Shown here one piece after another: positions 11,603-54,776 of a stretch of 64,000 nt of DNA. A model generated the notes under the pieces. It saw only the letters and a list, made by a program, of their open reading frames with translations. It made no database searches and was not told where the DNA came from. Numbering within the stretch: position 1 is the first letter of the stretch; each line of letters begins with the position of its first letter. The position numbers were made by a program, and so were the translations under genes. The stretch is from Escherichia coli (GTDB taxonomy: Bacteria; Pseudomonadota; Gammaproteobacteria; Enterobacterales; Enterobacteriaceae). The stretch lies in the NCBI RefSeq assembly GCF_003018235.1, contig NZ_CP027437.1. One strand, 5' to 3'.

Positions 11603-12517
11603 ATGAGTCGTTCACAAAATTTACGCCACAATGTGATTAACCAGGTCATTGATGATATGGCGCGGGGTCATATCCCTTCCCCACTTCCATCGCAAAGTGC
11701 GCTGGCGGAAATGTACAACATCAGCCGCACTACAGTGCGTCATATTCTCAGCCACTTACGCGAATGCGGCGTCTTAACGCAGGTTGGAAACGACTATGTG
11801 ATTGCGCGTAAACCTGACCATGATGACGGTTTCGCCTGTACTACCGCTTCAATGAGTGAACAAAACAAAGTGTTTGAGCAGGCTTTTTTCACGATGATAA
11901 ACCAGCGCCAGTTACGCCCTGGGGAAACTTTTTCTGAACTGCAACTGGCTCGGGCCGCGGGTGTCAGCCCGGTTGTAGTAAGAGAATATCTTTTAAAATT
12001 CGGCCGTTATAATCTTATTCAAAGCGAAAAGCGCGGCCAGTGGAGCATGAAGCAATTCGATCAATCCTACGCCGAGCAGCTGTTTGAACTACGCGAAATG
12101 CTCGAAACACATTCACTTCAGCACTTTCTCAACCTGCCTGATCATGATCCCCGCTGGCTGCAGGCGAAAACCATGCTCGAACGTCATCGGCTACTGCGTG
12201 ACAACATCGGCAATAGCTTTCGCATGTTCTCGCAACTTGACAGAGATTTTCACTCCTTACTGCTTTCAGCTGCCGACAATATCTTTTTTGATCAATCTCT
12301 TGAGATCATCTCAGTCATCTTTCATTTTCACTATCAATGGGACGAAAGCGATCTTAAACAGCGCAATATCATTACCGTCGATGAGCATATGACCATTCTC
12401 AGCGCTCTGATTTGCCGCAGTGACCTTGATGCCACCCTTGCGCTCCGTAACCATTTGAATTCAGCTAAACAATCAATGATTCGATCCATTAATGAGAACA
12501 CGCGTTATGCTCATTAA
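11603..12517 (+). CDS. lgoR: GntR-family transcriptional regulator of L-galactonate utilisation
   Basis: 304-aa ORF with N-terminal wHTH (SQSALAEMYNISRTTVRHIL). Confidence 0.85.
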   Translation: MSRSQNLRHNVINQVIDDMARGHIPSPLPSQSALAEMYNISRTTVRHILSHLRECGVLTQVGNDYVIARKPDHDDGFACTTASMSEQNKVFEQAFFTMINQRQLRPGETFSELQLARAAGVSPVVVREYLLKFGRYNLIQSEKRGQWSMKQFDQSYAEQLFELREMLETHSLQHFLNLPDHDPRWLQAKTMLERHRLLRDNIGNSFRMFSQLDRDFHSLLLSAADNIFFDQSLEIISVIFHFHYQWDESDLKQRNIITVDEHMTILSALICRSDLDATLALRNHLNSAKQSMIRSINENTRYAH

Positions 12518-12731
12518 GTACGGATTAAAAACAGCAAACTATTAGCGGGGGCACGGTTTTATCAAAAGATAAATACCGGGAAATTCCCGCTTACCTATGC
12601 TCACAATCAGTCGACTAAAAATGTTTTTGTGAGCGGTAGTAAAGTCCTAAAACTTTAACCTGCCGTTAATGTCAACCTTGCGTAATGCACAATTACGTAA
12701 ACAATTAAAATTATAAATACAGGAGTCCGGC

Positions 12732-14093
12732 GTGGAAAAAGAAAATATCACCCTCGATCCGCGTTCTTCATTTACTCCATCTTCGTCGGCAGATATTCCC
12801 GTGCCACCAGATGGATTAGTTCAACGCAGTACCCGAATTAAACGCATTCAAACCACCGCCATGTTGTTATTATTTTTTGCGGCGGTAATCAATTATCTCG
12901 ACCGCAGTTCGCTGTCGGTAGCAAATTTAACGATTCGTGAAGAATTGGGATTAAGTGCCACCGAAATCGGCGCTTTGCTCTCCGTGTTTTCACTCGCTTA
13001 CGGGATTGCGCAACTTCCTTGCGGCCCACTATTGGATCGTAAAGGCCCACGCCTGATGCTGGGACTGGGGATGTTCTTCTGGTCACTGTTCCAGGCCATG
13101 TCTGGCATGGTGCACAGCTTTACGCAGTTCGTGTTGGTGCGTATCGGTATGGGGATTGGTGAAGCGCCGATGAACCCATGTGGCGTAAAAGTCATTAACG
13201 ACTGGTTCAACATCAAAGAGCGCGGACGCCCGATGGGCTTCTTCAACGCAGCTTCTACCATTGGCGTTGCCGTAAGCCCACCGATTCTGGCGGCGATGAT
13301 GCTGGTGATGGGCTGGCGTGGGATGTTTATTACCATTGGTGTGCTGGGGATTTTTCTCGCCATTGGCTGGTATATGCTCTATCGCAACCGCGAGCACGTA
13401 GAACTGACTGCCGTTGAACAAGCTTATCTCAATGCAGGTAGCGTCAATGCCCGCCGAGATCCGCTCAGTTTTGCCGAATGGCGCAGCCTGTTCCGTAACC
13501 GCACAATGTGGGGAATGATGCTCGGATTCAGTGGCATCAACTACACTGCGTGGCTGTATCTGGCCTGGCTTCCTGGTTACCTGCAAACAGCCTATAACCT
13601 GGATTTAAAAAGCACAGGGTTGATGGCGGCTATCCCTTTCCTGTTTGGGGCTGCCGGGATGCTGGTCAACGGTTACGTTACTGACTGGCTGGTCAAAGGG
13701 GGAATGGCTCCGATTAAAAGCCGTAAGATCTGCATTATTGCCGGGATGTTCTGTTCTGCCGCCTTTACGCTGGTCGTACCGCAAGCGACAACATCCATGA
13801 CGGCGGTTCTGCTGATTGGCATGGCACTGTTCTGTATTCACTTTGCCGGAACATCCTGCTGGGGCTTGATCCACGTCGCAGTTGCTTCTCGCATGACGGC
13901 GTCGGTGGGCAGTATCCAGAACTTTGCCAGCTTCATCTGCGCCTCTTTTGCGCCGATCATTACTGGTTTTATTGTTGATACCACCCACTCATTCCGTCTG
14001 GCACTAATCATCTGCGGTTGCGTCACCGCAGCGGGAGCACTGGCGTACATCTTCCTGGTTCGTCAGCCGATCAACGACCCGCGTAAAGATTAA
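12732..14093 (+). CDS. lgoT: MFS L-galactonate:H+ symporter
   Basis: 453-aa ORF, 12 predicted TM segments, MFS signature region GPLLDRKGPR. Confidence 0.85.
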   Translation: MEKENITLDPRSSFTPSSSADIPVPPDGLVQRSTRIKRIQTTAMLLLFFAAVINYLDRSSLSVANLTIREELGLSATEIGALLSVFSLAYGIAQLPCGPLLDRKGPRLMLGLGMFFWSLFQAMSGMVHSFTQFVLVRIGMGIGEAPMNPCGVKVINDWFNIKERGRPMGFFNAASTIGVAVSPPILAAMMLVMGWRGMFITIGVLGIFLAIGWYMLYRNREHVELTAVEQAYLNAGSVNARRDPLSFAEWRSLFRNRTMWGMMLGFSGINYTAWLYLAWLPGYLQTAYNLDLKSTGLMAAIPFLFGAAGMLVNGYVTDWLVKGGMAPIKSRKICIIAGMFCSAAFTLVVPQATTSMTAVLLIGMALFCIHFAGTSCWGLIHVAVASRMTASVGSIQNFASFICASFAPIITGFIVDTTHSFRLALIICGCVTAAGALAYIFLVRQPINDPRKD

Positions 14094-36505: not shown

Positions 36506-38095
36506 ATGAACAATAACGATCTGGTCGCGAAGCTGTGGAAGCTGTGCGACAACCTGCGCGATGGCGGCGTTTCCTATCAAAACTACGTCAATGAACTCGC
36601 CTCGCTGCTGTTTTTGAAAATGTGTAAAGAGACCGGGCAGGAAGCGGAATACCTGCCGGAAGGTTACCGCTGGGATGACCTGAAATCCCGCATCGGCCAG
36701 GAGCAGTTGCAGTTCTACCGAAAAATGCTCGTGCATTTAGGCGAAGATGACAAAAAGCTGGTACAGGCAGTTTTTCATAATGTTAGTACCACCATCACCG
36801 AGCCGAAACAAATAACCGCACTGGTCAGCAATATGGATTCACTGGACTGGTACAACGGCGCGCACGGTAAGTCGCGCGATGACTTCGGCGATATGTACGA
36901 AGGGCTGCTGCAGAAGAACGCCAACGAAACCAAGTCTGGTGCAGGCCAGTACTTCACCCCGCGTCCGCTGATTAAAACCATTATTCATCTGCTGAAACCG
37001 CAGCCACGTGAAGTGGTACAGGACCCGGCAGCGGGTACGGCGGGCTTTTTGATTGAAGCCGACCGCTACGTTAAGTCGCAGACCAATGATCTGGACGACC
37101 TTGATGGCGACACGCAGGATTTCCAAATCCACCGCGCGTTTATCGGCCTCGAACTGGTGCCCGGCACCCGTCGTCTGGCGCTGATGAACTGCCTGCTGCA
37201 CGATATTGAAGGCAACCTCGACCACGGCGGCGCAATCCGTCTGGGCAACACTCTGGGTAGCGACGGTGAAAACCTGCCGAAGGCGCATATTGTCGCCACT
37301 AACCCGCCGTTTGGCAGCGCCGCAGGCACCAACATTACCCGCACCTTTGTTCACCCGACCAGCAACAAACAGTTGTGCTTTATGCAGCATATTATTGAAA
37401 CGCTGCATCCCGGCGGTCGTGCGGCGGTGGTTGTGCCGGATAACGTGCTGTTTGAAGGCGGCAAAGGCACCGACATTCGTCGTGACCTGATGGATAAGTG
37501 TCATCTGCACACCATTCTGCGTCTGCCGACCGGTATTTTTTACGCTCAGGGCGTGAAGACCAACGTGCTGTTCTTTACCAAAGGGACGGTGGCGAACCCG
37601 AATCAGGATAAGAACTGTACCGATGATGTGTGGGTGTATGACCTGCGTACCAATATGCCGAGTTTCGGCAAGCGCACGCCGTTTACCGACGAGCATTTGC
37701 AGCCGTTTGAGCGCGTGTATGGCGAAGACCCGCACGGTTTAAGCCCGCGTACTGAAGGAGAATGGAGTTTTAACGCCGAAGAGACGGAAGTTGCCGACAG
37801 CGAAGAGAACAAAAATACCGATCAGCATCTTGCTACCAGCCGCTGGCGCAAGTTCAGCCGTGAGTGGATCCGCACCGCGAAATCCGATTCGCTGGATATC
37901 TCCTGGCTGAAAGATAAAGACAGTATTGATGCCGACAACCTGCCGGAGCCGGATGTGTTAGCGGCAGAAGCGATGGGCGAACTGGTACAGGCGCTGTCTG
38001 AACTGGATGCGCTGATGCGTGAACTGGGGGCGAGCGATGAGGCGGATGCGCAGCGCCAGTTGCTGGAAGAAGCATTTGGTGGGGTGAAGGAATGA
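36506..38095 (+). CDS. hsdM: Type I restriction-modification N6-adenine DNA methyltransferase subunit (HsdM)
   Basis: 529-aa ORF with SAM-binding and catalytic NPPF motif (TNPPFGSA). Confidence 0.95.
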   Translation: MNNNDLVAKLWKLCDNLRDGGVSYQNYVNELASLLFLKMCKETGQEAEYLPEGYRWDDLKSRIGQEQLQFYRKMLVHLGEDDKKLVQAVFHNVSTTITEPKQITALVSNMDSLDWYNGAHGKSRDDFGDMYEGLLQKNANETKSGAGQYFTPRPLIKTIIHLLKPQPREVVQDPAAGTAGFLIEADRYVKSQTNDLDDLDGDTQDFQIHRAFIGLELVPGTRRLALMNCLLHDIEGNLDHGGAIRLGNTLGSDGENLPKAHIVATNPPFGSAAGTNITRTFVHPTSNKQLCFMQHIIETLHPGGRAAVVVPDNVLFEGGKGTDIRRDLMDKCHLHTILRLPTGIFYAQGVKTNVLFFTKGTVANPNQDKNCTDDVWVYDLRTNMPSFGKRTPFTDEHLQPFERVYGEDPHGLSPRTEGEWSFNAEETEVADSEENKNTDQHLATSRWRKFSREWIRTAKSDSLDISWLKDKDSIDADNLPEPDVLAAEAMGELVQALSELDALMRELGASDEADAQRQLLEEAFGGVKE

Positions 38096-39459
38096 GTGCT
38101 GGGAAATTGCCGGAGGGGTGGGAACAGATTGAAATAGGCGACATTGCTGATGTCATCTCTGGTGGGACACCAAAATCGGGAGTCGCTGAAAATTTTGCAC
38201 CTTCGGGTGAGGGAGTCGCCTGGCTTACGCCTGCCGATTTGAGCGGTTATAAAGAGAAATATATCTCACATGGTGCCAGAGATTTAACTACACTAGGCTA
38301 TTCCTCTTGTTCAGCAAAACTAATGCCCAAAGGCACTATACTTTTTAGTAGCCGGGCACCGATTGGATATGTTGCTATTGCTGCAAATGAGATTGCGACT
38401 AACCAGGGTTTCAAAAGTTTTGCTTTTCCTTCAGACATTTTTCCTGATTATGCATATTACTTTCTCCGCAACATCAGACATATTGCAGAGGAAATGGGCA
38501 CAGGAACAACTTTTAAAGAAATTTCTGGTAGTTCTGCGAAAACATTACCATTTGTTCTTGTACCGTTTGCCGAACAAAAAATCATCGCTGAAAAACTCGA
38601 TACGCTGCTGGCACAGGTAGACAGCACCAAAGCACGTCTTGAGCAAATCCCACAAATCCTGAAACGTTTTCGTCAGGCGGTTCTGGGTGCAGCGGTGAGA
38701 GGAAAACTAACTGAAGACTGGAGAGATAATTCAAGCCTGTCTGGGTGGAGAGAAGGCAAACTTGGGGAGTTTATAAAAAAACCAAGTTACGGAACGTCAT
38801 CTAAGTCTAATAAAGAAGGACTCATTCCTGTATTAAGAATGGGCAATCTTCAGGGAGGAAAGTTGGACTGGACGGATCTAGTCTATACGTCAGATACCAT
38901 AGAAATTGAAAAGTATAAACTTGAGTACAATGATGTATTATTCAATCGTACAAATAGTCCTGAACTTGTCGGGAAAACAGCCATATATAAATCAGAGCAA
39001 CCAGCTATTTATGCAGGTTATTTGATTAGGGTTCAATGTTTACCTGATTTAAACCCTGACTATCTTAACTACCATTTAAATAGCATTTTGGGGAGACAAT
39101 ATTGCTATTCAGTTAAATCTGATGGGGTCAGTCAATCAAATATTAATGCACAGAAATTAATTGCATACCCAATAACTGTTCCCCCCCTTCCCGAACAAGC
39201 TGAAATCGTTCGCCGCGTCGAGCAACTCTTCGCCTACGCCGACACAATAGAAAAACAGGTCAACAACGCCTTAGCCCGCGTCAACAATCTGACGCAATCC
39301 ATCCTGGCAAAAGCGTTCCGTGGTGAACTCACCGCCCAGTGGCGGGCCGAAAACCCGGAATTAATCAGCGGTGAAAACAGCGCCGCCGCGTTGCTGGAGA
39401 AAATCAAAGCTGAACGCGCAGCCAGCGGGGGTAAAAAAGCCTCGCGTAAAAAGTCCTGA
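38092..39459 (+). CDS. hsdS: Type I R-M specificity subunit HsdS, family IA conserved framework with two divergent target-recognition domains
   Basis: 455-aa ORF overlapping hsdM stop; conserved N-terminus, central and C-terminal EcoKI-like framework; variable blocks (~38130-38560, ~38700-39180) are AT-rich and unlike K-12. Confidence 0.9.
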   Translation: MSAGKLPEGWEQIEIGDIADVISGGTPKSGVAENFAPSGEGVAWLTPADLSGYKEKYISHGARDLTTLGYSSCSAKLMPKGTILFSSRAPIGYVAIAANEIATNQGFKSFAFPSDIFPDYAYYFLRNIRHIAEEMGTGTTFKEISGSSAKTLPFVLVPFAEQKIIAEKLDTLLAQVDSTKARLEQIPQILKRFRQAVLGAAVRGKLTEDWRDNSSLSGWREGKLGEFIKKPSYGTSSKSNKEGLIPVLRMGNLQGGKLDWTDLVYTSDTIEIEKYKLEYNDVLFNRTNSPELVGKTAIYKSEQPAIYAGYLIRVQCLPDLNPDYLNYHLNSILGRQYCYSVKSDGVSQSNINAQKLIAYPITVPPLPEQAEIVRRVEQLFAYADTIEKQVNNALARVNNLTQSILAKAFRGELTAQWRAENPELISGENSAAALLEKIKAERAASGGKKASRKKS

Positions 39460-39592
39460 TCATTATTTTCTGGCGCACCTTTCTGGTGCGCTATTTATTA
39501 TTTTTACGCCAATCATAACTCACACAAATATATTTAAATCGTTCCAGAAACTTCCCATTTTATTCTATTTTTAGCTGGACTTTCCCTGTATT

Positions 39593-39612
39593 TACTGATG
39601 ATATATCCAGGT
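39593..39612. promoter_or_regulatory. LexA (SOS) box-like site upstream of symE
   Basis: tactgatgatatatccaggt: CTG-N10-CAG core with AT-rich centre. Confidence 0.5.
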
Positions 39613-39639
39613 ATTTAGCGCGATGCGGATGTGCGCCAA

Positions 39640-39720
39640 CACACCCGCACCGCTCATCACAATCACTATTTATGGAGAATAGTAATCATGACTGACACGC
39701 ATTCTATTGCACAACCGTTC
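39640..39720 (-). ncRNA. symR: Candidate antisense sRNA SymR (type I antitoxin) overlapping the symE translation-initiation region; boundaries approximate
   Basis: Positional inference from the known symE/symR arrangement; not folded or promoter-mapped here. Confidence 0.35.
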
Positions 39721-40029
39721 GAAGCAGAAGTCTCCCCGGCAAATAACCGTCAATTAACCGTGAGTTATGCGAGTCGCTACCCGGATTACAGCCGTATTCC
39801 CGCCATCACCCTGAAAGGTCAGTGGCTGGAAGCCGCCGGTTTTGCCACTGGCACGGCGATAGATGTCAAAGTGATGGAAGGCTGTATTGTCCTCACCGCC
39901 CAACCCCCCGCCGCCGAAGAGAGCGAACTGATGCAGTCGCTTCGCCAGGTGTGCAAGCTGTCGGCGCGTAAACAAAGGCAGGTGCAGGAGTTTATTGGAG
40001 TGATTGCCGGTAAACAGAAAGTCGCGTAA
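39688..40029 (+). CDS. symE: SOS-induced toxin SymE (AbrB/SpoVT-fold endoribonuclease-like)
   Basis: Start at [15 protein letters not shown] inside ORF 39631..40029; 113 aa; between hsdS and mcrB. Confidence 0.85.
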
Positions 40030-40190
40030 CAGCGTTTACTCCCGGTTAACCACCGGGAGCTTTCCACTGACTCAATAGAAACTTTCCCCCTCAGTAAATA
40101 TTTACCTGCCTGATTGTGCAGTAAAAATCTATTGTTTCAGTACGTTGCGAAAGCGATAATAGAGGCTTAGCAATGAGGAAGGCACATCTT

Positions 40191-41570
40191 ATGGAATCAA
40201 TTCAAGCCTGGATTGAAAAATTTATTGAGCAAGCACAGCAACAAAGTTCACAATCCACTAAAGATTATCCAACGTCTTACCGTAACCTGCGAGTAAAAGT
40301 GAGTTTCGGTTATGGCAATTTTACATCTATTCCCTGGTTTGCATTTCTTGGAGAAGGTCAGGAAGTTTCTAACGGTATATATCCCGTTATTCTCTATTAT
40401 AAAGATTTTGATGAGTTGGTTTTGGCTTATGGTATAAGTGACACGAATAAACCACATGCCCAATGGCACTTTTCTTCTGACATACCTAAAACAATCGCAG
40501 AGTATTTCCAGGCAACTTCAGGTGTATATCCTAAAAAATACGGACAGTCCTATTACGCCTGTTCCCAAAAAGTCTCACAGGGTCTTGATTATACCCGGCT
40601 TGCCTCCATGCTGGACAACATAATCAACGACTATAAATTAATATTTAATTCTGGCAAGAGTGTTATTCCACCTATGTCAAAAACTGAATCATACTGTCTG
40701 GAAGATGCGTTAAATGATTTGTTTATCCCTGAAACCACAATAGAGACGATACTCAAACGATTAACCATCAAAAAAAATATTATCCTCCAGGGGCCGCCCG
40801 GCGTTGGAAAAACCTTTGTTGCACGCCGTCTGGCTTACTTGCTGACAGGAGAAAAGGCTCCGCAACGCGTCAATATGGTTCAGTTCCATCAATCTTATAG
40901 CTATGAGGATTTTATACAGGGCTATCGTCCGAATGGCGTCGGCTTCCGACGTAAAGACGGCATATTTTACAATTTTTGTCAGCAAGCTAAAGAGCAGCCA
41001 GAGAAAAAGTATATTTTTATTATAGATGAAATCAATCGTGCCAATCTCAGTAAAGTATTTGGCGAAGTGATGATGTTAATGGAACATGATAAACGAGGTG
41101 AAAACTGGTCTGTTCCCCTAACCTACTCCGAAAACGATGAAGAACGATTCTATGTCCCGGAGAATGTTTATATCATCGGTTTAATGAATACTGCCGATCG
41201 CTCTCTGGCCGTTGTTGACTATGCCCTACGCAGACGATTTTCTTTCATAGATATTGAGCCAGGTTTTGATACACCACAGTTCCGGAATTTTTTACTGAAT
41301 AAAAAAGCAGAACCTTCATTTGTTGAGTCTTTATGCCAAAAAATGAACGAGTTAAACCAGGAAATCAGCAAAGAGGCCACTATCCTTGGGAAAGGATTCC
41401 GCATTGGGCATAGTTACTTCTGCTGTGGGTTGGAAGATGGCACCTCTCCGGATACGCAATGGCTTAATGAAATTGTGATGACGGATATCGCCCCTTTACT
41501 CGAAGAATATTTCTTTGATGACCCCTATAAACAACAGAAATGGACCAACAAATTATTAGGGGACTCATAG
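40191..41570 (+). CDS. mcrB: 5-methylcytosine-specific restriction enzyme McrBC, GTPase/DNA-binding subunit McrB
   Basis: ORF 40173..41570, start at MESIQAWIEKF; AAA+ GTPase motifs GPPGVGKT and NTADRS. Confidence 0.9.
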   Translation: MESIQAWIEKFIEQAQQQSSQSTKDYPTSYRNLRVKVSFGYGNFTSIPWFAFLGEGQEVSNGIYPVILYYKDFDELVLAYGISDTNKPHAQWHFSSDIPKTIAEYFQATSGVYPKKYGQSYYACSQKVSQGLDYTRLASMLDNIINDYKLIFNSGKSVIPPMSKTESYCLEDALNDLFIPETTIETILKRLTIKKNIILQGPPGVGKTFVARRLAYLLTGEKAPQRVNMVQFHQSYSYEDFIQGYRPNGVGFRRKDGIFYNFCQQAKEQPEKKYIFIIDEINRANLSKVFGEVMMLMEHDKRGENWSVPLTYSENDEERFYVPENVYIIGLMNTADRSLAVVDYALRRRFSFIDIEPGFDTPQFRNFLLNKKAEPSFVESLCQKMNELNQEISKEATILGKGFRIGHSYFCCGLEDGTSPDTQWLNEIVMTDIAPLLEEYFFDDPYKQQKWTNKLLGDS

Positions 41571-42616
41571 TGGAACAGCCCGTGATACCTGTCCGTAATA
41601 TCTATTACATGCTTACCTATGCATGGGGTTATTTACAGGAAATTAAGCAGGCAAACCTTGAAGCCATACCCGGTAACAATCTTCTTGATATCCTGGGGTA
41701 TGTATTAAATAAAGGGGTTTTACAGCTTTCACGCCGAGGGCTTGAGCTTGATTACAATCCTAATACCGAGATCATTCCTGGCATCAAAGGGCGAATAGAG
41801 TTTGCTAAAACAATACGCGGCTTCCATCTTAATCATGGGAAAACCGTCAGTACTTTTGATATGCTTAATGAAGACACGCTGGCTAACCGAATTATAAAAA
41901 GCACATTAGCCATATTAATTAAGCATGAAAAGTTAAATTCAACTATCAGAGATGAAGCTCGTTCACTTTATAGAAAATTACCGGGCATTAGCACTCTTCA
42001 TTTAACTCCGAAGCATTTCAGCTATCTGAACGGCGGAAAAAATACGCGTTATTATAAATTCGTTATCAGTGTCTGCAAGTTCATCGTCAATAATTCTATT
42101 CCAGGTCAAAACAAAGGACATTATCGTTTCTATGAATTTGAAAGAAATGAAAAAGAGATGTCATTACTTTATCAAAATTTTCTTTTTGAATTTTGCCGTC
42201 GTGAATTACCATCTGTAAATACAACTCGCCCACATTTAAAATGGGATGCATCAAGCATATCGGATCAATCACTTAGCTTGTTACCTCGAATGGAAACTGA
42301 CATCACCATTAACTCATCAGGGAAAATACTTATCGTTGATGCCAAATACTATAAAAGCATTTTTTCACGACGAATGGGTACAGAAAAGTTTCATTCTCAA
42401 AATCTATATCAACTGATGAGTTACTTATGGTCGTTAAAGCCTGAAAATGGCGAAAAAACAGGGGGGTTATTAATATACCCACACGTAGACACCTCAGTGA
42501 AACATCGTTATAAAATTAATGGCTTCGATATTGGCTTGTGTACCGTCAATTTAGGTCAGGAATGGCCGTGTATACATCAAGAATTACTCGACATTTTCGG
42601 TGAATATCTCAAATAA
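41570..42616 (+). CDS. mcrC: McrBC endonuclease subunit McrC (PD-(D/E)xK)
   Basis: GTG start overlapping mcrB stop (VEQPVIPVRNIYYMLTYAWG) within ORF 41540..42616. Confidence 0.85.
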   Translation: MEQPVIPVRNIYYMLTYAWGYLQEIKQANLEAIPGNNLLDILGYVLNKGVLQLSRRGLELDYNPNTEIIPGIKGRIEFAKTIRGFHLNHGKTVSTFDMLNEDTLANRIIKSTLAILIKHEKLNSTIRDEARSLYRKLPGISTLHLTPKHFSYLNGGKNTRYYKFVISVCKFIVNNSIPGQNKGHYRFYEFERNEKEMSLLYQNFLFEFCRRELPSVNTTRPHLKWDASSISDQSLSLLPRMETDITINSSGKILIVDAKYYKSIFSRRMGTEKFHSQNLYQLMSYLWSLKPENGEKTGGLLIYPHVDTSVKHRYKINGFDIGLCTVNLGQEWPCIHQELLDIFGEYLK

Positions 42617-42672: not shown

Positions 42673-45600
42673 TCAGGAGGCGATCACCTCCACCAGCACA
42701 TCCGTTGCCCAACTCTCTTCGCTGTTGGCGACATTCCCTTCCTTGCAGGCCTGAGCCATTTTGACTAACTGGAAAGAAACGTCATCGCGGAAATCAAAGT
42801 AATGCCATTGCGATGCAAAGTTGATGCGCCAGTAGCCCATCCCCTGATCGAAGCGGATCTTCAATACCTGACCATCATCAAAAGTCACCGTCAGTTTACG
42901 ATGGTGAGGGATATCGCGCGGCGAGTCGAACACCGTCAGTTCTACCGGCCTGCCCAGCGCAGCAGCAAACCACTGATCAGCGAAATCCTGAAAATCCGCT
43001 ATGCTCATCCAGTCATGGAAAGGCCGGTTACCGGGGCGATCTTTATCTTTAAATAGCGTATCCAGCGTCACTTCAGCGCCATCGGTCAGCTTTGTTTTTA
43101 GCGGTCTCAAAATTGATCCCAACAACGCCAGCGCAACCGGGTTTTGCAGATAGCGATCGGTATAGTGAACGCCGGTAATTCGCGTGTTATTCATCAGTGA
43201 CTGCGCTTCTTCATGGTCGTTAAACAGCACGTCCCAGAAGCGTTGCCCAAACTGCGACAGTGGTCCATTCAACTGTTTGTGGATCTGAATGTCTTTGACC
43301 CGCTCGACAGCGTTGGCGGCTTTAGCCGGCAGAATAAATTCGTTCAGCTCTACCGTTTTATAGCCGAGACTACGTACCACCAGTTCGTCATTCAGGTGCC
43401 ACTCCGGCCCCGGAATCGTTGCCTGCTGGCTACGAGAGGCCAGCGTCATCACGCGATCGGCAAAGGTGACCTGAGCAACGATCGGTAATTTCAAATCCTG
43501 TTCAACATGGCATAGCCGCACACCCAGCGCAGTAAATTGCGATAGTTCGTGCAACAGGTCCGGGTCATCCACTCCCGCAGGAATAACAAGATCGACCTCG
43601 ACGTTGTCTTTTAGCCGATAGTTCTGAACCGCCGCGCGGAACTGACGTGCGTATAAATCCCACTCATTGGGCGCGCCGGTCATCCACAGGGTGAGCTTTT
43701 CAGCGCCTTCGTTAATCGCCCGGCGAATCGTATCGCCAATGGCGCCAGGGCAGTAGCGGGCATCCGGCAGCGAGAATGTCTCTTCATCCGGTAAACCGAT
43801 GTAATACGTGAAGTCATCGCCAAGCCAGGCCAGCGCCGCTTTGCGATCCAGCAAATCGTGATCGTGGCGAGTCTGGGAATCAAGCAGGCATTCACTACAT
43901 GCAGTCTCACAATGGCGGCAGCCTAACTGTTTCACCATTCCCTGCAATATAGCTTCAATGTGTACCGGTGCGCTGGAGGCAAAACCTGCACCACCGCTGA
44001 TCACATCATAAAGCTGTACGGCTAATACCGATTGCCCATCCTCCAGTCTGACCGGACGTACAGAATAGCCGAGTTCTGCGGCGGAGATACCCAGAACGCC
44101 CGCCAGCGCCTGACGCAGAGCAACCGCCAGAGTCATGGCAACAATCCGCCCCTCCTCTGTGTTATCTGGCAGATACTCGCCGTTTTGCGGTTTGCGCAGA
44201 ATCATTTCAAAGACATCGGTGCGCGCCAGTGCGCCCAGGGTGACGTTCTTCATGAGTGCCGTCGAACCGGGGCAAATCAGACGATGATTCTGGCTGTCGC
44301 GATCCGCTTTACCCGGACGCGGTGGATAGTGAGCTTCCATGCTTTTCGGCGCATCATTTTCATTCAGCATCGACTCAGCACGGCCACAGCTCAGACACAA
44401 TGCATAACCGTGTCCACCTTCCCCCAAACTTTGCTGGAAAACATGCCCATCAGCCCCAGAAGCCATATAACCCATTAGCGGGTTAGGCAACGGTACGGGC
44501 TCTGCTTTAACAAAGACCCACGCGGGGACAACCGGGACGAATTTCATGGTTTCAATATTGTTCGTTACCGGAGCGTGTGCATCGGTGACAAACCCGGCAG
44601 GCTGCAGCACCTGACGGCGATTATCCATGATTATTTTTTCGCCGCAGGCGCTATTGGAGCAAAAGAGCATCCCGGAACTGCTCATCCCCTCTTCATAGCC
44701 AATGGTCCCGCATTTGTGACAGCGCCAGGCGCAATCCAGACGCTGGGCTTCATTGGTATCAGCATTAATGTTGTGCCAGTGCAGTGAGACACCGGCAGAG
44801 CGGAAGACACGGCCATCAAGAATGATCTCTGCTCCCGGTGCATATTCACGAATGGCAACACCGAGGTTACGGGAAGGTAATCCTTTATAACGGGAGACGT
44901 TATCTTCACGGTCCTTTTTATCACGACTTTTTTGCGATTTTTCGCGGATATAATCTTCCATTGTGAAGTTATCAAACGTCACTACATCTGTCGGGAAACC
45001 GTATCCCGGCAAGAAGGTTCTGGCAGCTAGATCGCGCAGCAGATACTCGCCACAGTGCCGTTTCTTCTCCAGCTCTATGCGCTTACGATAAGGCGTTTGC
45101 GGCTGCGACTCACGCTCCTGTGTCACGAGATCGCGATAAACGGAGAGCCACCGCTGCTGCAGGAAGGTGATCGCGTTGATTGTTTTATCCCGCAGATATT
45201 CGGCTCTTGCACCATGCAACGCCGTACCTTTCACCAGCCGTTCCAGCGCCGTGTCGATATCAAGAACAGGGCGTTCCAGCCAGACTTTGAAGCGTTCGCA
45301 TTTTGACTGCCCGTCATCTTCACCGAAAAACCAGAGGCTATCGAGGCTGGTTTTCTCTTTATCGGTTTCGCCAATAACGTTACATAAAAAGTCGGACAGT
45401 AATAATGCATTGACGTGACGTTGCACCAGTCGGGCGGAGTTCATCGCGACCATGGGTGCCGGGATCATGGTTTCAAATGGCCAGAGCGGGTTGGCAAAAA
45501 CCTGCTGGTCGTGTGGGTTACCTTTACATAGGGTGTAAGAGATCGCACGTGATTCTTTACTACGCCCGGCTCGCCCGGCGCGCTGTAAATAGTTGGCCGG

Positions 45601-48600
45601 ATGTGGCGGTACGTTGTTCATTACCACCGCAGTAATGCCCCCGATATCAACCCCCATTTCCATGGTGGTGGAACAGTTGAGAACATTTAGTTGCCCATTC
45701 TTGAACATCTTTTCATAGCTTTGCAGACGTTCTGACGACTGCTGGGCAGAGTGCTCGGCAGTGCGATAGTAGAAACCGCCTTCCACGACACGATCGTTGA
45801 TGTCTGTCCAGACGTTTTCCGACCGCAATTGTGCGATCAGCGGATCATTGCTGACCCAGTCGCGTGCTTTTGCCAGACCCTCTGCGTAGTCTTCCTGTGA
45901 ACGATCCAGCTTCCAGATTTCCGGCATGGTGACTTTCTGCGCGACAAAAGTGTCATATTGCGCCTGGGTAAGATGCTCGAACGAAATATGGGTAGGCAGA
46001 TAAGGGGTTAAGCCTTTAAAAGCCGTATCCAGGATTTTATTGGTTACCGGGCAAATCCAGGCATCCGTGATTAATGAAAAAGTCATATGCTCTTTCGGTA
46101 AATAAAAACGGTTGCCATCGGGTTTCAGTACTGCAAGCGGTCCGGTAAGTTGGGCCCATGCTTCTTTCAGCCATGTATTGATAATATCAATAGTCGCCGT
46201 ATTGACGGTTTTGAATCCAGCCCCCAGCATCAGTAACTTCGCTAAACGATGGGATACGTTGCCATTACGAATTTGAGGCCAGCGTCTGTTCTGATTATCT
46301 TCAGGATCTTTTGATTCCGGGTTACGGACGAATTTTGATGAAAAACGGCTACCGATCCAGTTTTTCAGCTCATCATCCAGCTGTGTGAAGTTGCTCTCAC
46401 GAACGTAATGATCCAGCGTAACTTTGAGAAAATCGCGCCAGTCATCCAGCGTTAATCCTTTTTCCTGCCAGTGCAGAGGGATCTTATGTATTTTCTCCAG
46501 CCCCAGGTAACCAACCTGAACCAGCCCTTGTGTTTCCAGGCTGTTAGTCCGTTTAGGGCGACGCATGAATTCCCGGAATAACAACATTTCCGAAAGCTTT
46601 AGAGGCCCGCCGTTTTCATTAAACACTTCAGGCTTAAGATAATGGTTATATTGCAGAACCGGGCCACGGATATCGGCTCTCTCTTTAAGCTCGTTAACCA
46701 TTTCTGTCCAGGTTCGGGATACCAGAGTAATTGCAGCTTTTCCACCGATTGCAGACTGGTAAGCCTGTTCAAGCTGCTCGGCCTGCGCTTCTGATAATTT
46801 CGCTTGATCCGGCAATCCCCAGCTTCGATATTCTTCTGCCTGCTCACGGGCTTGCTTTACCCTGGTCGCTAATTTTTCCAGATCGGCATTAGCGTTCGGC
46901 GCCGTGGGCGTTTGCGTTCGTTGATGCCAGCTCAGAATTTCGACTACGCTTCCGCGTAAGCGACTACGTTCTGCTTCTTGCTGCATACGCACCGCCATCC
47001 GGGCTGTCCCTTGTCGACTATCCGTAAAGGTAATGAGTCGACGTCCTCGCCCTGGCAACGAATCTGGTCCGACGCCCTCTTTGCCTTCATCACTGGCAAA
47101 GTCCTGACAATACTCAAGAACGGTGGGAACGATATTAGTAACGTAAAATGGCCCACCTAATAGTGCACGCCGGAAGGGCTGTTTCCCGCTCATGCCTCTG
47201 AAGCCACAGCCGCTGGCGCTACAAACCTGTTCAATATCATTAATAATCAGCGGAATGCTGTCATTATTAATAACGCCAATACGGCGCGTCTGACGGTCGA
47301 GGCGTTGTAGGGTATAGCCTGTCTCGCTGGTCTCTCCTGCGGCAATAATCAACGGAGGCTGGAAACCGTTCTCTTTTTCGACTTTTTCCTCTGTAGTGTC
47401 ATGTTCAACAGGTACTTCATCCTGCAAGGAGAACTCATCGCCACCTTTATTTTCCCATTGGACAAGTTTGCCCTTTTTGTCCTGCGCCAGAAGATGAGGC
47501 TCATTACAATCATTACAGAACGCCACTTCGTAGACAGGGCTTCCACAGTCGCAATTTTGTCGCTGGTTCACATACACATAGCCAAAGGGCCAGCCTTTTT
47601 CGAGCGGTGTACCGTGCTTTAATCTGCAATCTTTATCAACACAAGCCCATATTCCCTGGGTATTACGCTGGAAGATATGCGCCCTGACTTTAAGAAATGC
47701 GGGATCCTTTGCATTAGGTTGAGTCCCTGAACAGACATCGATCCAACGCAGTACTTCCTGCTGGCTGTAATGCTGTTTTGTCAGCGCATTTAACCGCTGC
47801 GTCATCTCATCCAGTTTCATTGGATTAGGTTGGCTAACCAACATTTCACGTATGTAACGCGCTTCGGGGGAGTGCGTAAGCGCATAAAAGCGCTCAGGAC
47901 TTATCCCTTTAATTTTATTATCATTTTTATCTTTTAGATCCAGATCAGGTATTTGCTCTATTTCGTCTAACGGAACAGAAACGTTTTTGGATGGTTCCAG
48001 TTCAGGAATCACCCGACTTCCGTCCAGAACATCGATGCGCTCCTGCGGGATACCGGATAATTCAGAGAGAAATTTTTTCAGCTGCTTTTCAGCGTCGCTG
48101 CCGGCAATGGTCGCAGAGGTCGCTACAAAGCGCACGTCATCTGGTGTCACGCCAAACGCTGTCATCACACGACGCAGCTGGAGCGCCAGTTCAGCGGCCT
48201 GCGACCCGACATAGGTATGCGCTTCATCCAGTACAATCCAGCGTAGTGATTTTTGTGCTTTAGATTGCTGGATAATCGGGGCGTCGACCTGGCGAACCAT
48301 CATATATTCCAGCATCGTGCCGTTGGTCACCAGAATCGGCGCAGGTTCTTCACGCATTTTTTCGCGCGAGAGCACCTCATTCGGCCTTTTTGCCTGTTCA
48401 CTTTTTACCGAAGCGTGTAGGTTTTCGGTGTTGCCGTTGTAAAGGCAGTAGCGAATCCCAGTACCAAAACCACGCGTCCAGGCATCCAGACGCTCGCGCT
48501 GTGAATTAATCAAGGCGTTCAATGGATAGAGAAAAAGGGCTCGGACACCAACCAACGGATTGTTGCCATTTTCATGCAGTTCCCGGTAAAGATCTTCCAG

Positions 48601-49017
48601 CACCGGAACCATAAAACATTCCGTTTTACCTGAACCCGTACCACTGGTTACCACCACTGAATGTTTCTTTTCCAGCAAAGCTTTCCAACTGGCTAACTGG
48701 TGTGTAAAAGGCTTCCAGTCAGCACCAAATCGGTACCGGCCATTACTCTGATTATCCAGTGAATCAACCACTGCTTTGCTCAACAATGCGTTGCCTTCCG
48801 TCAGGCTGCGCATCGTGTGATTTGACTCCTTCCATCCAAACATTTGCTGGAATACCGGAGAAGCAAGGAATGAGCCCGGTTTCCCACAATCAGCCCCCAT
48901 TTGTTGCGCGAGATGTTCACGCAGCTGCGGGTTGGTAACGCCCATGATACTGAGCGTTGCTTCAGTTGAACGAGACAACGATTGTTCAATAAGTGACGAA
49001 AAATAGCGTGTAGTCAT
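42673..49017 (-). CDS. Giant (2114 aa) DEAD/DEAH-box SF2 helicase with zinc-ribbon/DUF1998-like cysteine clusters; candidate DruE-like effector of a Druantia type III-like defence module
   Basis: Single uninterrupted ORF; Walker [15 protein letters not shown] box VLDEAHTY, motif [11 protein letters not shown]; Cys clusters [42 protein letters not shown]; family assignment is by pattern recognition. Confidence 0.7.
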
Positions 49018-50818
49018 CCTTATTCCTTTTTATTTTTTAGCAACATAACGCAACAGGCTGCACTGAAAGATGGTCTTAAACCAGCGGGAATCGAAGTCCC
49101 TGACTTACCTCAGGAAAAATACGGCACCGGGTTTACGGTCAAATACAGCTTCAAAAGAAGTATTTCCGCTTGCCACAGCTGCAGCGAAGACGGGTAACCA
49201 GGCCACGGAATAGCGGTGATTTGCGTCAGGATTAATACCAATCACTGGATTTTTTTGTGACATCATCCATTTATACAGACGCTTGCAGCCATATTCAGGC
49301 CAGCGAGCTTCACTGTGCTCACGTAAAAGCTCCTGATACCACCCGTGGACACAAGATTCAGGAATAGACGGAGGGAGATATCCGTTACTTAACCATTTCT
49401 CAATTTCATCGGCATATGTCGGGAACACGAGCCCCAGCCGTTGAAACATATTAGTAACCAGTAATTTCTGGGTTTCCTCCGGTGCACCTTTTTGGCTCAG
49501 GAACAATTTGAAACGCTCAGATGCAGCTTTGATCTCAAAGATGGGGAAAAACTCCCATAGAATAGGGAACTCATTCTCAATACGACTCAGGTACTCTGCT
49601 GACATTTCAAATTTGAAGAGCGACATCGCCAATGCCTGCGGATGCTGCACTAGTGCACGCCATACTTCAAAGGTTGCCAGCGGTAAATAACCAAATTGAT
49701 CGTACAGGCTACGCATAAATTGCCAGCCGGAATGGGCAGGATCGTTAGCCATCTGTCCGAGAACCAGTGTGATGGTATTAACTTCTGCCTGTGGATTAAA
49801 AAGCTGGGTCGCTTTCTGCAATGAGCGGATGTTGCTTTCTTCTACCGGTAACGAAGATTCGCCACGAATGAAGCAGGGGCGAAAAGCCATCTCCTCACCC
49901 GGTTTAGGAACAACCAACCATGGCCCATTTTTGTTAACGATTGAGCTCAACTCATATTCACCGACAGGCACTCCCTCGCTCATTCTTGATGCTAAGGGGA
50001 TGGATTTCCTCTCGGGTTCACTTAACAGCATGATAACGGGGGAAGGAATCTGCCCAGCACGATGGTTCACTGACTGGCTGAGTAATAGTTCTTTTTCATA
50101 ATCATAGCGCAGGCTGTATTTATAGCGACGAATTTGCCAGGCCATGACCACACCTGCCCCCGTAATACGCATCTCAACAACCTGATCAATACCTGCCTCA
50201 AGTGAAATCAGGTTCTCAATATGTTCGCGCAGACTATAGAGATTCAATTCAACAGGACGATCGCTCAACGCCGTATAACACCATTCATGCCATGCCTGTA
50301 ATCCACTAACGGAGCGCAAATACAACTGCAATGTATATTTTGTCGGCTCACCATTTCTGGAGAACAGAAACGCTCTGGAACCCAGCAGATCATGCAGCGT
50401 AATGTTTTTATCCAGAGGACGTCCGTTTACATCAAGAGCGAGACAGCCTTTAGCGGGAAAAGGTAACTCAATGTCGATGGGGTCAGCCGCCAAATTAGGC
50501 AGAACTTGTAATGTAATAAATGCCGGAGGTACCCCTTCCGCTTTAAGTTGTATCTCTGTTCGCCCCTCAGTACGCTTACGTGTAGCCTCCAATGTTTTAT
50601 CTTTAAGTTTTGCTACACAAGGATGCTGTGTGGTGATTAAGATAGTGCCTTCATTTGCGTGCATTCCACCTTTTATCTCAATACTGAAATCAGCAGGCAA
50701 GATACCGATTTTGCGACGCAAGAGCGTTTCATTGTTACTATTACGGATAGAAAGATATTGAGCCCCCAGCATCTCTTGTATATGACATTGCTCAATTGAA
50801 ATTCCGCTCAGGTAACGC

Positions 50819-50823
50819 GTTAC
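50819..50823. repeat. Target-site duplication GTTAC (left copy)
   Basis: Identical 5-mer directly flanks both IS termini. Confidence 0.8.
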
Positions 50824-52777
<1,954 letters not shown>

Positions 52778-52782
52778 GTTAC
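52778..52782. repeat. Target-site duplication GTTAC (right copy)
   Basis: Identical 5-mer directly flanks both IS termini. Confidence 0.8.
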
Positions 52783-54776
52783 ATCAATGCTTTGAATATC
52801 CGGTAGTGTAGAAATGACTTTTGGTACACCAATAAATGTTTCATCTGGATGACAAACCCAGCTTGCACGCTTTCCATTTAGAGCAAACCTTCCGATGCTG
52901 ATTTGTTCTCTTCCGGTGCGAATCCGATAAGTTTCATTTGCTGTAACTGTAACGTCCTGACATCCCTTCACAGGTAGTGCTTTTAGTCCTAATACGTTTA
53001 CTGCGCTCGATTGGCCATCAAAACCAGCAACATTGCTATTATCCCGAGGGAGTACAATCAGAACATCGCTGCTTCGCACACTGCAAGAAGCCTGTCCCTG
53101 TAACAGCCATTGATCTGCATCAACGATGAAGGTTAACGGCACCTCACCAATGGCAATTTCACTGTCATCAAGTTTAATGCTCCCAACAATCATCCCTCCA
53201 GCACGAGCCACTAATGACAAACCTGCCGATGGATTTTGCCTGACAAATCTCACTTCGCTTTTACGTAATCGAACTGTTGCCTGTCTGTTTTCCAGGGAAG
53301 CATAGGCTGGCCCAAGGCCAGAGACTTCCTCACCATCTTCACAAATGGCAAGTTCAAAGCGCGTAGTTGACGGCTCGCTTGTTACAGGAAAGGAAACTTC
53401 GTCCGGAAGAGATACTATCACCCTAAGCTCATCTGGATGCTTTTCTGACCAATAGAATTGGCAACGCGTACTCTTATTTTTTTGTAGTCGAGGCTTAGCC
53501 TCTACAGAGGCTGCGCATAGCAGTCCATTCAAAAAATGCGTTCCTGTTTCATCATCTAACGGTATTGGAAACTCGCTTCGCCAGGTAGGGTGAACCTTCT
53601 CAAGCTGTTGTACTGGTTCTTTGTGATTTATTAGGTTGTGAGTAAGTACTAAGGAATTGAGGTTATCAGCCATATGACTGATAAGTTCTACAGAGGTATC
53701 TTCGCTAAAAACAGTTGGCAGCGCTGATTTTTCTATGACAGCTCTTGCCAGCGAAAGGGCAGAAAAACCTGACTGCTTTGCTTGCTCATATTGTCCAAGG
53801 ATCCTGGAGAAAACAGCCAGAAAGCGACTGTCTGATTCTTTGAGTAGCCGGAAAGGTAAACCACCTTCACTGAATAATGTTCCGAGAAAATTGCGTCGTT
53901 CAGATTCATAAAATCGAATTGGGCGCAGCCAGTAATCTTCCATCCCTTTCGGTACGATAGTACCAAGCTCTGTGGCGGTGAATGAAATCCCTATTTTTTA
54001 TATATAGGGTCCCACGTCCATCCGCATTGCCGTTCATAATCCCTGCGGTACCACTCAGAGCAAAAAAGAACAAAACAGGCAGCAAAGTCCCTATTACATA
54101 TATTAGATTGTGATTGACCGACCGCACGGAGTAGCTGCGTTAATTGGGTATATTCATCATTGGTTGCATGATATTCATAAAGAGGACGGCCATCCGGTTG
54201 TCTCAACCCTCTAAGATTCACAAAGTTACTTAGCCAGGAAGTACATTTTACCCATGAAATGTATTCTGATTGACCCAAAGCAAGCTCCTTAGAGATAAAA
54301 GATACAAAAACAAAACCCCACAACACTTCTAATTTGAAAGAAAACTTTTCAAAATATCGTATAATTAATCAGGCGGCAACAACTAATTTTTCATGTCGGT
54401 ACTATAAATTAATTTTAGATAAAAATGATATCAACCATCTATTAATCACAACTCATTTATCACCTGGTTTTATAATTTCAAATGAAAATAAATCTCAAAC
54501 AATCAAAAAGTATGCAGTAGCTAACATTTAACTTTCCAGGATATAAAACAATTAGAGAAACTGCACAATAGCGAATAATGAAAGTTGTAAAGTCAGTCAA
54601 AAAACACAAGCAATCAGTGTGCGTTTTTTGACCGTTATCGACATGAGTTTAAAGAGTTTAGTGAAGAAGATATTCCTGTACACTCCATACCTATTGATGA
54701 ATTGTCTCGGGAAAATTTTTATAACTTAATTTAAAAACATAAAAACGTTTTATTATATATAAATCTATAACCCCCA

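Follow-up and report, generated by a model that had tools for sequence, protein, structure and literature searches.

[quoted passage not shown] Bell et al. (2025) predicted them, and the same features were seen by cryo-EM in four independent 2026 preprints. In the published structures, the insert forms a duplex-binding and dimerisation platform, and the C-terminal part comprises an OB/zinc/MZB 'lid', which unwinding requires, and then two PLD-like domains. Five zinc motifs have been reported, two in the double zinc-binding domain (dZBD), two in the OB-fold and zinc domain (OBZ) and one in the MrfA-type zinc-binding domain (MZB), and these modules have a structural role and contact DNA. At a duplex junction, homologous DruE loads onto the single-stranded DNA and unwinds 3'-to-5', with the duplex held by the inserted domains. 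Dimerisation has been shown experimentally for homologues of the protein described here, whose identity to the solved E. coli protein is 41% in the N-terminal third and 32% in the C-terminal third. Phage protection has been shown for homologous Druantia III systems, in which defence depends on DruH, on dimerisation of DruE, and on its ATPase motifs and MZB cysteines. One E. coli Druantia III-A structure, 9TU7, represents a DruE monomer (accession list, Himpich et al. 2026).

The window analysed here is a stretch of 64,000 nucleotides from an Escherichia coli contig (NZ_CP027437.1). It contains a complete open reading frame of 2114 aa with an ATG start, which lies between mcrBC and yjiS/yjiR, within the immigration control region of E. 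coli. The RefSeq label of this gene is 'DEAD/DEAH box helicase', and it lies beside yjiT:

42673-49017, minus strand: druE (yjiV locus), from the ORF call, PADLOC DruE3 and the 9TU7 match
49030-54278, minus strand: druH (yjiT), a pseudogene and the partner directly upstream in the same operon, from PADLOC DruH3, NCBIfam YjiT_fam and comparison with an intact allele

The druE product matched the PADLOC DruE3 profile PDLC00037 with 2697 bits (E = 0) over residues 1-2110, spanning profile positions 1-2053 of 2055. It also aligned end to end with 9TU7 (1025 bits for the sequence alone, 1496 bits with a profile). The reading frame contained neither a stop nor a frameshift, and deviations occurred at 0 of 519 near-invariant family columns. 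This full-length similarity to the type III DruE profile and the gene content, with druH adjacent and co-oriented and no druA-D, druM, druF or druG, both correspond to Druantia type III. The C-terminal PLD-like domains, recognised by fold matches of the AF2 C-half, correspond to subtype III-A as opposed to III-B. The probability that the ORF at 42673-49017 encodes DruE, the signature protein of the two-gene type III-A Druantia system (druH-druE), was estimated at roughly 0.93. The NCBIfam search returned no DruE model above cut-off. Because a Foldseek search with both AF2 halves against the PDB (releases to 2026-04-08) did not return 9TU7, the link to this structure was drawn from sequence and from the accession list of the paper. 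Of 5426 complete E. coli genomes, 652 carried sequence matching druE. Papers retrieved for yjiV/yjiT dealt only with strain engineering, apart from the Nobrega/Patel preprint.

Pfam identified DEAD (106-310), Helicase_C (1085-1153) and MZB (PF09369, 1631-1711) in the protein, with no match in the inserted domains or the PLD region. A DEAH-bearing RecA1 lobe, a RecA2 lobe with motif VI and a C-terminal four-Cys MZB/DUF1998 module (CxxCx3CxxC at 1700-1710) are the hallmarks of the YprA/MrfA family. MrfA was the best Foldseek match to the AF2 models, and the C-half model also matched the MrfA and DrmAB folds. DruE is almost certainly an SF2 DNA helicase of the YprA/MrfA family, in which accessory domains have been inserted on either side of RecA2's first strand and within the lobe. 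The domains were placed as follows:

48718-49017, minus strand: N-terminal region, residues ~1-100 (approximate boundary), from AF2 secondary structure
48013-48717, minus strand: RecA1 lobe, residues ~101-335, with motifs I, II and III
47713-48000, minus strand: helical domain after RecA1, residues ~340-435, from AF2 helices 350-431
47083-47700, minus strand: beta-rich double zinc-binding domain (dZBD), residues ~440-645, from AF2 strands 444-617 and Cys conservation
47014-47055, minus strand: first RecA2 strand, motif IV-like, residues ~655-668, from AF2 strand 659-662 and 9TU7 identity
46738-47013, minus strand: three long helices, candidate dimerisation (DD / PD / stalk) subdomain, residues ~669-760, from AF2 helices 668-702, 713-732 and 736-756
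45778-46737, minus strand: duplex-binding / Cap / INS domain in RecA2, residues ~761-1080, from an AF2 alpha/beta model of high pLDDT
45448-45771, minus strand: rest of the RecA2 lobe, residues ~1083-1190, with motifs V and VI
44848-45435, minus strand: extended winged-helix / HTH domain, helical, residues ~1195-1390, from AF2 C-half helices and the literature
44173-44835, minus strand: OB-fold and zinc domain (OBZ), residues ~1395-1615, from invariant residues and a beta-rich AF2 model
43798-44160, minus strand: MrfA-type zinc-binding domain (MZB/DUF1998), residues ~1620-1740, from Pfam PF09369 at 1631-1711
43288-43770, minus strand: PLD-like domain 1, residues ~1750-1910, from AF2 (pLDDT mostly >85) and Foldseek
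42676-43275, minus strand: PLD-like domain 2, residues ~1915-2114, from invariant DRY/HxR motifs and Foldseek

Motif I (TGSGKT, 127-132) and motif II (DEAH, 264-267) lay within residues ~120-270, as a preliminary description of this DNA had placed them, and were followed by motif III (SAT, 301-303) and the motif V region (STTMEMGVD, 1116-1124). Motif VI (QRAGRAGR) was found at 1145-1152; its earlier position of ~1060 had been counted about 85 residues short. Inserted domains of ~750 residues separate RecA1 from most of RecA2; the gap, put at ~700 residues before, is real. However, the gap consists of two blocks and not of a single insertion, because the conserved motif IV strand (659-670) lies inside it. 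One block (~340-645) precedes the first RecA2 strand, and the other (~669-1080) is embedded within RecA2. G658-A672 formed an invariant block in the homologues, and the motif IV segment was identical in 9TU7; we infer that the strand at ~655-668 belongs to RecA2. AF2 confidence was low at 635-667 and 1117-1137, both parts of this lobe. In the model, the motif VI lobe packs against RecA1 as a normal SF2 core, so that both RecA lobes are predicted to form one bilobed ATPase core despite the insertion, and the earlier view that motif VI belongs to the same core holds in the structure prediction.

The N-terminal region (NTR) has been described for all YprA-family helicases and for DruE. The helical domain at ~340-435, variously named WH, five-helix or BrxA-like in the literature, had no Pfam match, nor had the duplex-binding / Cap / INS domain at ~761-1080, which is likewise known from published work. 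Within the dZBD, the loop 524-551 was poorly conserved with pLDDT below 50 and is likely equivalent to the published 'lock' loop. Residues ~669-760 were the least conserved part of the protein (conservation 0.25-0.42); the equivalent P680-Q758 bundle of EcDruE is needed for dimerisation and defence. According to this map, the inserts would comprise the helical domain after RecA1, a double-zinc beta-rich domain and a duplex-binding 'cap' carrying a helical dimerisation bundle. After RecA2, a winged-helix, an OB domain bearing two of the zinc sites, and the MZB with its four cysteines would form a lid over the RecA lobes, with two PLD-like domains downstream of it. The ~650 C-terminal residues previously left unassigned can therefore be allotted to an OB/zinc module, the MZB and two PLD-like domains. 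The proposal that the inserted and C-terminal regions carry specialised functions agrees with the published DruE structures, and an architecture once called unusual is the standard Druantia III-A DruE layout, with thousands of homologues and cryo-EM structures (9TU7-9TUC). Conservation of all its motifs and zinc ligands suggests that DruE at this locus works like its homologues.

DruE has 34 cysteines, and the clusters among them are 459/464/489/491/501/504, 599/604, 1433/1436/1453/1458, 1541/1544/1582 and 1700/1703/1707/1710. There were 11 close Cys pairs, compared with 2.5 +/- 1.5 in 20000 shuffles, one of which reached 11. All the clustered cysteines were invariant in 119 full-length homologues (50-98% identity) except C1429, beside the 1433-1458 cluster, which was conserved in 5% of them. 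The clusters reported earlier at about 480-510 and ~1430 roughly correspond to two of these, whereas none exists at 1350-1385, as there is no Cys between 1323 and 1428; 599/604 and 1700-1710 had been overlooked, and so had 1541-1582 unless '~1430' was an undercount of it. In the dZBD, the invariant cysteines C459, C464, C489, C491, C501, C504, C599 and C604 were accompanied by H447 and H508; how these cysteines pair to metals is an assumption. The OBZ contained two putative zinc sites, C1433/C1436/C1453/C1458 and C1541/C1544/H1563/C1582, all invariant and aligned with 9TU7. The putative MZB ligands were C1700/C1703/C1707/C1710, in a domain that also contains H1718, and mutation of the EcDruE residues aligned with these cysteines, C1681/1683/1687/1690, abolishes defence. 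All 20 proposed zinc ligands were invariant in the 119 homologues, and 20 of 20 matched the same residue in 9TU7 (Cys; His for H1563). Their grouping into five sites (two, two and one) would match the five reported zinc motifs. The clusters are genuine, conserved metal-site candidates.

The partner gene has fared differently. The 582-aa and 393-aa fragments of druH both matched PADLOC DruH3, and druH fragments also matched NCBIfam YjiT_fam. Compared with the intact 1096-aa allele in NZ_CP062824.1, where an intact druH-druE pair is syntenic, druH carries a 1-nt deletion near 53994, a CAG-to-TAG stop at 49105-49107 and an inserted element:

50824-52777, plus strand: IS100 (IS21 family), 1954 bp, from its junctions, inverted repeats and 5-bp duplication

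The element encodes istA (50910-51932) and istB (51929-52711), with IS21 transposase and IstB matches, is 100% identical to annotated IS100 copies and is flanked by a 5-bp target duplication (GTTAC) in druH. The IS100-druH junction was found in none of the 5426 complete E. coli genomes searched. DruH is required together with DruE for defence, and no intact DruH is encoded here. By descent this is a Druantia III locus, but the three lesions in druH probably leave the system inactive in the source strain.

The state of druH raises the question of whether druE itself is a decaying remnant, no longer selected or expressed and intact only because the loss is recent. The chances of this seem about even. 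The three independent lesions in druH and the need for both genes in defence are consistent with decay, as is the closest E. coli relative of druE, 99.9% identical, which has an IS30 inside the gene; furthermore, only 237 of the 652 matching genomes cover at least 80% of druE. On the other hand, the absence of stops and frameshifts, the unchanged near-invariant positions and a DNA identity of 99.3% to an intact locus argue against decay of druE.

[quoted passage not shown] The AF2 C-half matched PLD-superfamily folds in Foldseek, including PPK (2O8R), MITD1 (4A5Z), TDP1, Streptomyces PLD (1V0U) and SauUSI (7CLG); the fold is PLD-like. PLD-like domain 2 contained the residues D1954-R1955-Y1956 and H2038-x-R2040, invariant in the lineage (in alignment A2, numbered from residue 1151, these are columns D804/R805/Y806 and H888/R890). 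By motif and spacing, as distinct from direct alignment, these resemble the putative PaDruE nuclease pocket D1917/R1918/Y1919/H1999/R2001. PaDruE degrades ssDNA in an ATP-dependent manner, and defence is lost when its pocket carries D1740A, D1917A or R1918A (Loeff, Chanez and Jinek 2026); ECOR19 DruE cleaves long DNA, and R1258A at its PLD pocket abolishes defence (Nobrega/Patel preprint). In contrast, two other groups found no canonical HxK(x)4D motif in E. coli DruE and saw defence, helicase and ATPase activities unimpaired after deletion of one or both of its PLD domains, and III-B DruE proteins have no PLD domains at all. The present sequence likewise departs from the PLD-superfamily nuclease motif: it reads H2038-H-R2040-K-L-T-V-T-F-D, with HxR instead of HxK where the lineage is invariant, and the Asp expected four residues past the Lys is missing. 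An active nuclease in the PLD-like domains is contested in the literature, and published accounts also disagree on the polarity preference of DruE.

It is improbable that the immigration-control-region DruE (YjiV) differs functionally from the solved O-island-type protein through a Cys637/Cys989 pair and a DruH-independent role. C637 and C989 were near-invariant in this DruE lineage, and C637 is Ser in 9TU7; the pair might provide an additional metal site or a disulfide that joins the zinc and cap domains. An undamaged druE next to a triply broken druH could point to a role independent of DruH, for instance together with McrBC, encoded next to it, or with a different partner. That the protein comes from another YprA-centred system (DISARM DrmA/B, Dpd DpdJ, ARMADA or BRIGADE) can be dismissed: a common YprA core, fold matches to DrmA and DrmAB and weak PADLOC matches over the RecA lobes (DpdJ 98 bits, BrxH 83 bits, DrmA 35 bits) are outweighed by a full-length DruE3 score ~27 times higher and a DruH/YjiT neighbour without Drm, Dpd or Arm genes, and a DISARM, Dpd or BREX helicase identity was rejected on the same PADLOC scores and gene neighbourhood.

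For annotation, the identification of this ORF as DruE means that the 'DEAD/DEAH box helicase' beside yjiT in the immigration control region can be named DruE, and that the DruE domain map and putative zinc ligands can be transferred residue by residue. The locus is also a small case of defence-locus erosion, with druH struck three times, once by IS100, and druE intact. The presence of druE alone should not score the source strain as Druantia-positive.

[quoted passage not shown] 2026; Hu et al. 2026; the ECOR19 protein). The two proteins are similar in length (2114 aa here, 2104 aa there) and collinear throughout, with eleven domains in the same order, the same helicase motifs, the same five Cys/His clusters, a common clamp His (H1718 here, H1698 there) and a DruH partner immediately upstream. 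They differ in sequence, with identities of ~41% in the N-terminal third and ~32% in the C-terminal third; among the PDB entries searched, 9TU7 was the sole solved relative, and its identity is moderate (~32-41%). They also differ in site, the mcrBC-adjacent immigration control region here versus a Zorya II / ARMADA II island for the O-island type, and in druH, which is a pseudogene in the source strain.

The P. aeruginosa type III DruE (Loeff, Chanez and Jinek 2026) likewise has INS and Stalk domains within RecA2, DUF1998, OB and two PLD-like domains and a D-R-Y / H-x-R pocket. Its partner DruH is reported to be a 3' exonuclease that licenses DruE, and such licensing cannot operate in the source strain. 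Another P. aeruginosa DruE, P0032, was 59% identical over the full length; it was rejected as the published PaDruE since the two are numbered differently (P0032 has His instead of Glu at residue 266). MrfA / YprA of Bacillus subtilis (6ZNP/6ZNQ/6ZNS), a DNA repair protein of ~750 aa, has no counterpart to the ~750-residue inserts or the PLD-like domains of DruE, nor to four of its zinc sites. DISARM DrmA/DrmB (7S9V/7S9W), among the fold matches to both DruE halves, also use a YprA-family core and a DUF1998 module for phage defence, but divide them between two proteins, with inserted domains and partner genes that differ from those of DruE.

The druE gene is a real open reading frame of 2114 codons with an ATG start (42673..49017, minus strand). 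Its product matched the PADLOC type III DruE model PDLC00037 over the full length (residues 1-2110, E = 0, 2697 bits), with scores for the other DruE subtypes and the YprA-type helicases DpdJ, BrxH and DrmA smaller by a factor of approximately 5 to more than 70. The preliminary description was borne out in part as an observation and in part as an interpretation, and what it describes is a normal DruE, characterized before and already known. Of 5426 complete E. coli genomes, 652 contained sequence matching druE at 95-99.9% identity over the aligned part, and in 237 of these the match spanned at least 80% of the gene; the full-length matches bore no annotation other than 'DEAD/DEAH box helicase'. 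Three domains were identified by Pfam (DruE residue numbering here and below):

Residues 106-310, DEAD domain
Residues 1085-1153, Helicase_C domain
Residues 1631-1711, MrfA zinc-binding domain (MZB/DUF1998)

Motifs I and II were located near residues 120-270, as the preliminary description had placed them (TGSGKT at 127-132, DEAH at 264-267), with motif III (SAT) at 301-303. Motif VI, QRAGRAGR, was present but at 1145-1152, not at the proposed ~1060. The split of the core was borne out by a gap of ~750 residues separating the DEAD match in Pfam from that to Helicase_C; a single insertion was not, because an invariant block (659-672) lies inside this gap. The block is invariant in the family, is identical in the solved homolog 9TU7 (DruE monomer of E. 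coli Druantia III-A, Himpich et al. 2026), and runs from a beta strand into a helix in the AlphaFold2 model of the N-terminal half (residues 1-1200, 63-sequence alignment, pLDDT 79.0, pTM 0.68; pLDDT low at 635-667 and 1117-1137). We read it as the first strand plus motif IV of RecA2, in agreement with published accounts of accessory domains embedded in RecA2. The motif VI region did not fall outside the helicase core, the outcome that the preliminary description had named as refuting: its lobe packed on RecA1, the two forming one SF2 core in the model.

The 34 cysteines of DruE included the following clusters:

Residues 459/464/489/491/501/504, cysteine cluster
Residues 599/604, cysteine cluster
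Residues 1433/1436/1453/1458, cysteine cluster
Residues 1541/1544/1582, cysteine cluster
Residues 1700/1703/1707/1710, cysteine cluster

Clustering was beyond chance, with 11 close cysteine pairs observed versus 2.5 ± 1.5 in shuffles, of which 1 in 20,000 reached 11. All clustered cysteines and H1563 were invariant in 119 full-length homologs (50-98% identity), in which the isolated cysteines 1429, 1756, 1836 and 2091 showed no conservation. The earlier list had overlooked 599/604 and 1700-1710, and its cluster at 1350-1385 is absent, no cysteine occurring between 1323 and 1428; residue counting in the second half seems to have been ~80 too low. Two further isolated cysteines, C637 (47107-47109, minus strand) and C989 (46051-46053, minus strand), were 99-100% conserved in the 119 homologs of the lineage, with C637 corresponding to a serine in 9TU7. 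Judged from sequence, they could represent a disulfide particular to this lineage or an additional pair of metal ligands.

The C-terminal region, previously described as unassigned, was assigned to OB/zinc, MZB and two PLD-like domains from an AlphaFold2 model of residues 1151-2114 (pLDDT 78.7, pTM 0.64), whose fold matches comprised PLD superfamily members (polyphosphate kinase, MITD1, TDP1, Streptomyces PLD and SauUSI) as well as MrfA and DrmAB. The two PLD-like domains therefore indicate subtype III-A. Whether this pair acts as a nuclease is disputed: two groups, including Hu et al., who reported PLD-like domains without the HxK(x)4D motif, found them dispensable, whereas two others reported nuclease activity and essential PLD pocket residues. 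DruE of the window carries HxR, not HxK, and retains the residues of both pocket motifs, D-R-Y (D1954, R1955, Y1956) and H-x-R (H2038, R2040).

The druE gene is flanked on one side by mrr, hsdRMS, mcrB and mcrC and on the other by yjiT fragments, yjiR and an rpn gene, which places it in the immigration control region of E. coli. The gene itself is lesion-free. Three independent lesions, defined against the intact 1096-aa yjiT of NZ_CP062824.1, make its upstream operon partner druH (yjiT; 49030-54278, minus strand) a pseudogene:

50824-52777, plus strand, IS100 of 1954 bp with IS21-type inverted repeats and a 5-bp GTTAC target duplication
Near 53994, 1-nt deletion in a T7 run
49105-49107, CAG-to-TAG nonsense codon

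The IS100 was 100% identical to annotated IS100 copies, and its junction with druH was not found in any of the 5426 complete E. coli genomes. Since defence requires both DruE and DruH, the Druantia locus of the window, despite its flawless-looking druE, is probably inactive. The closest E. coli druE copy (99.9% identical; E. coli MEI003, NZ_CP071263.1, 3669593-3677160) is split by an IS30. Taken with the coverage of 80% or more in only 237 of the 652 matching genomes, this suggests that the Druantia locus in this region has often been eroded.

In the window, mcrB is intact (40173-41570, plus strand; 465 aa, NCBIfam McrB, 1100 bits). In contrast, the otherwise near-identical reference locus from NZ_CP062824.1 has an intact druH and a broken mcrB, which lacks ~600 bp and is annotated as frameshifted (locus positions 12126-12898). 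The hsdS product (38092-39459, plus strand) has 455 aa versus 496 aa in the reference locus, and the hsdS-symE-mcrB stretch (GC profile 38000-42000) is AT-rich (GC 0.40-0.46 versus ~0.52 around it); both features are consistent with a specificity subunit swapped in a hypervariable region. An Rpn-family recombination-promoting nuclease/ISNCY-like transposase gene (56773-57729, minus strand) is located just past yjiR, as in the reference locus.

Homologs of DruE dimerize via the helical bundle of the cap domain, bind single-stranded DNA at a junction and unwind 3'-to-5', with the duplex held by the zinc domain and cap and the tracking strand covered by a closing OB/MZB lid. Their defence activity depends on the ATPase motifs, the MZB cysteines, dimerization and DruH. 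Because DruE of the window showed no deviations across 519 near-invariant family columns, it would be expected to work by the same mechanism.

DruE aligned end to end with PDB chain 9TU7_Y (5-2089 against 11-2089; 1025 bits alone, 1496 bits with the family profile), and each clustered cysteine aligned with a cysteine. Residues 5-690 were 41% identical and residues 1402-2089 were 32% identical. The MZB cysteines C1681/1683/1687/1690 of this solved protein, whose mutation abolishes defence (Himpich et al.), correspond to C1700/1703/1707/1710, its clamp residue H1698 to H1718, and its RAGR arginines R1135/R1138 to R1146/R1149. Himpich et al. divided the solved protein into eleven domains; of its five zinc motifs, the double zinc domain and the OB/zinc domain hold two each and MZB the fifth. 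The 8 + 4 + 4 + 4 invariant putative ligands of DruE in the window agree with that number. The same architecture, predicted earlier by Bell et al. 2025, was reported under different names (Cap/PD, INS/Stalk, PLDi/PLDa) in the Nobrega/Patel preprint and by Hu et al. and Loeff et al.
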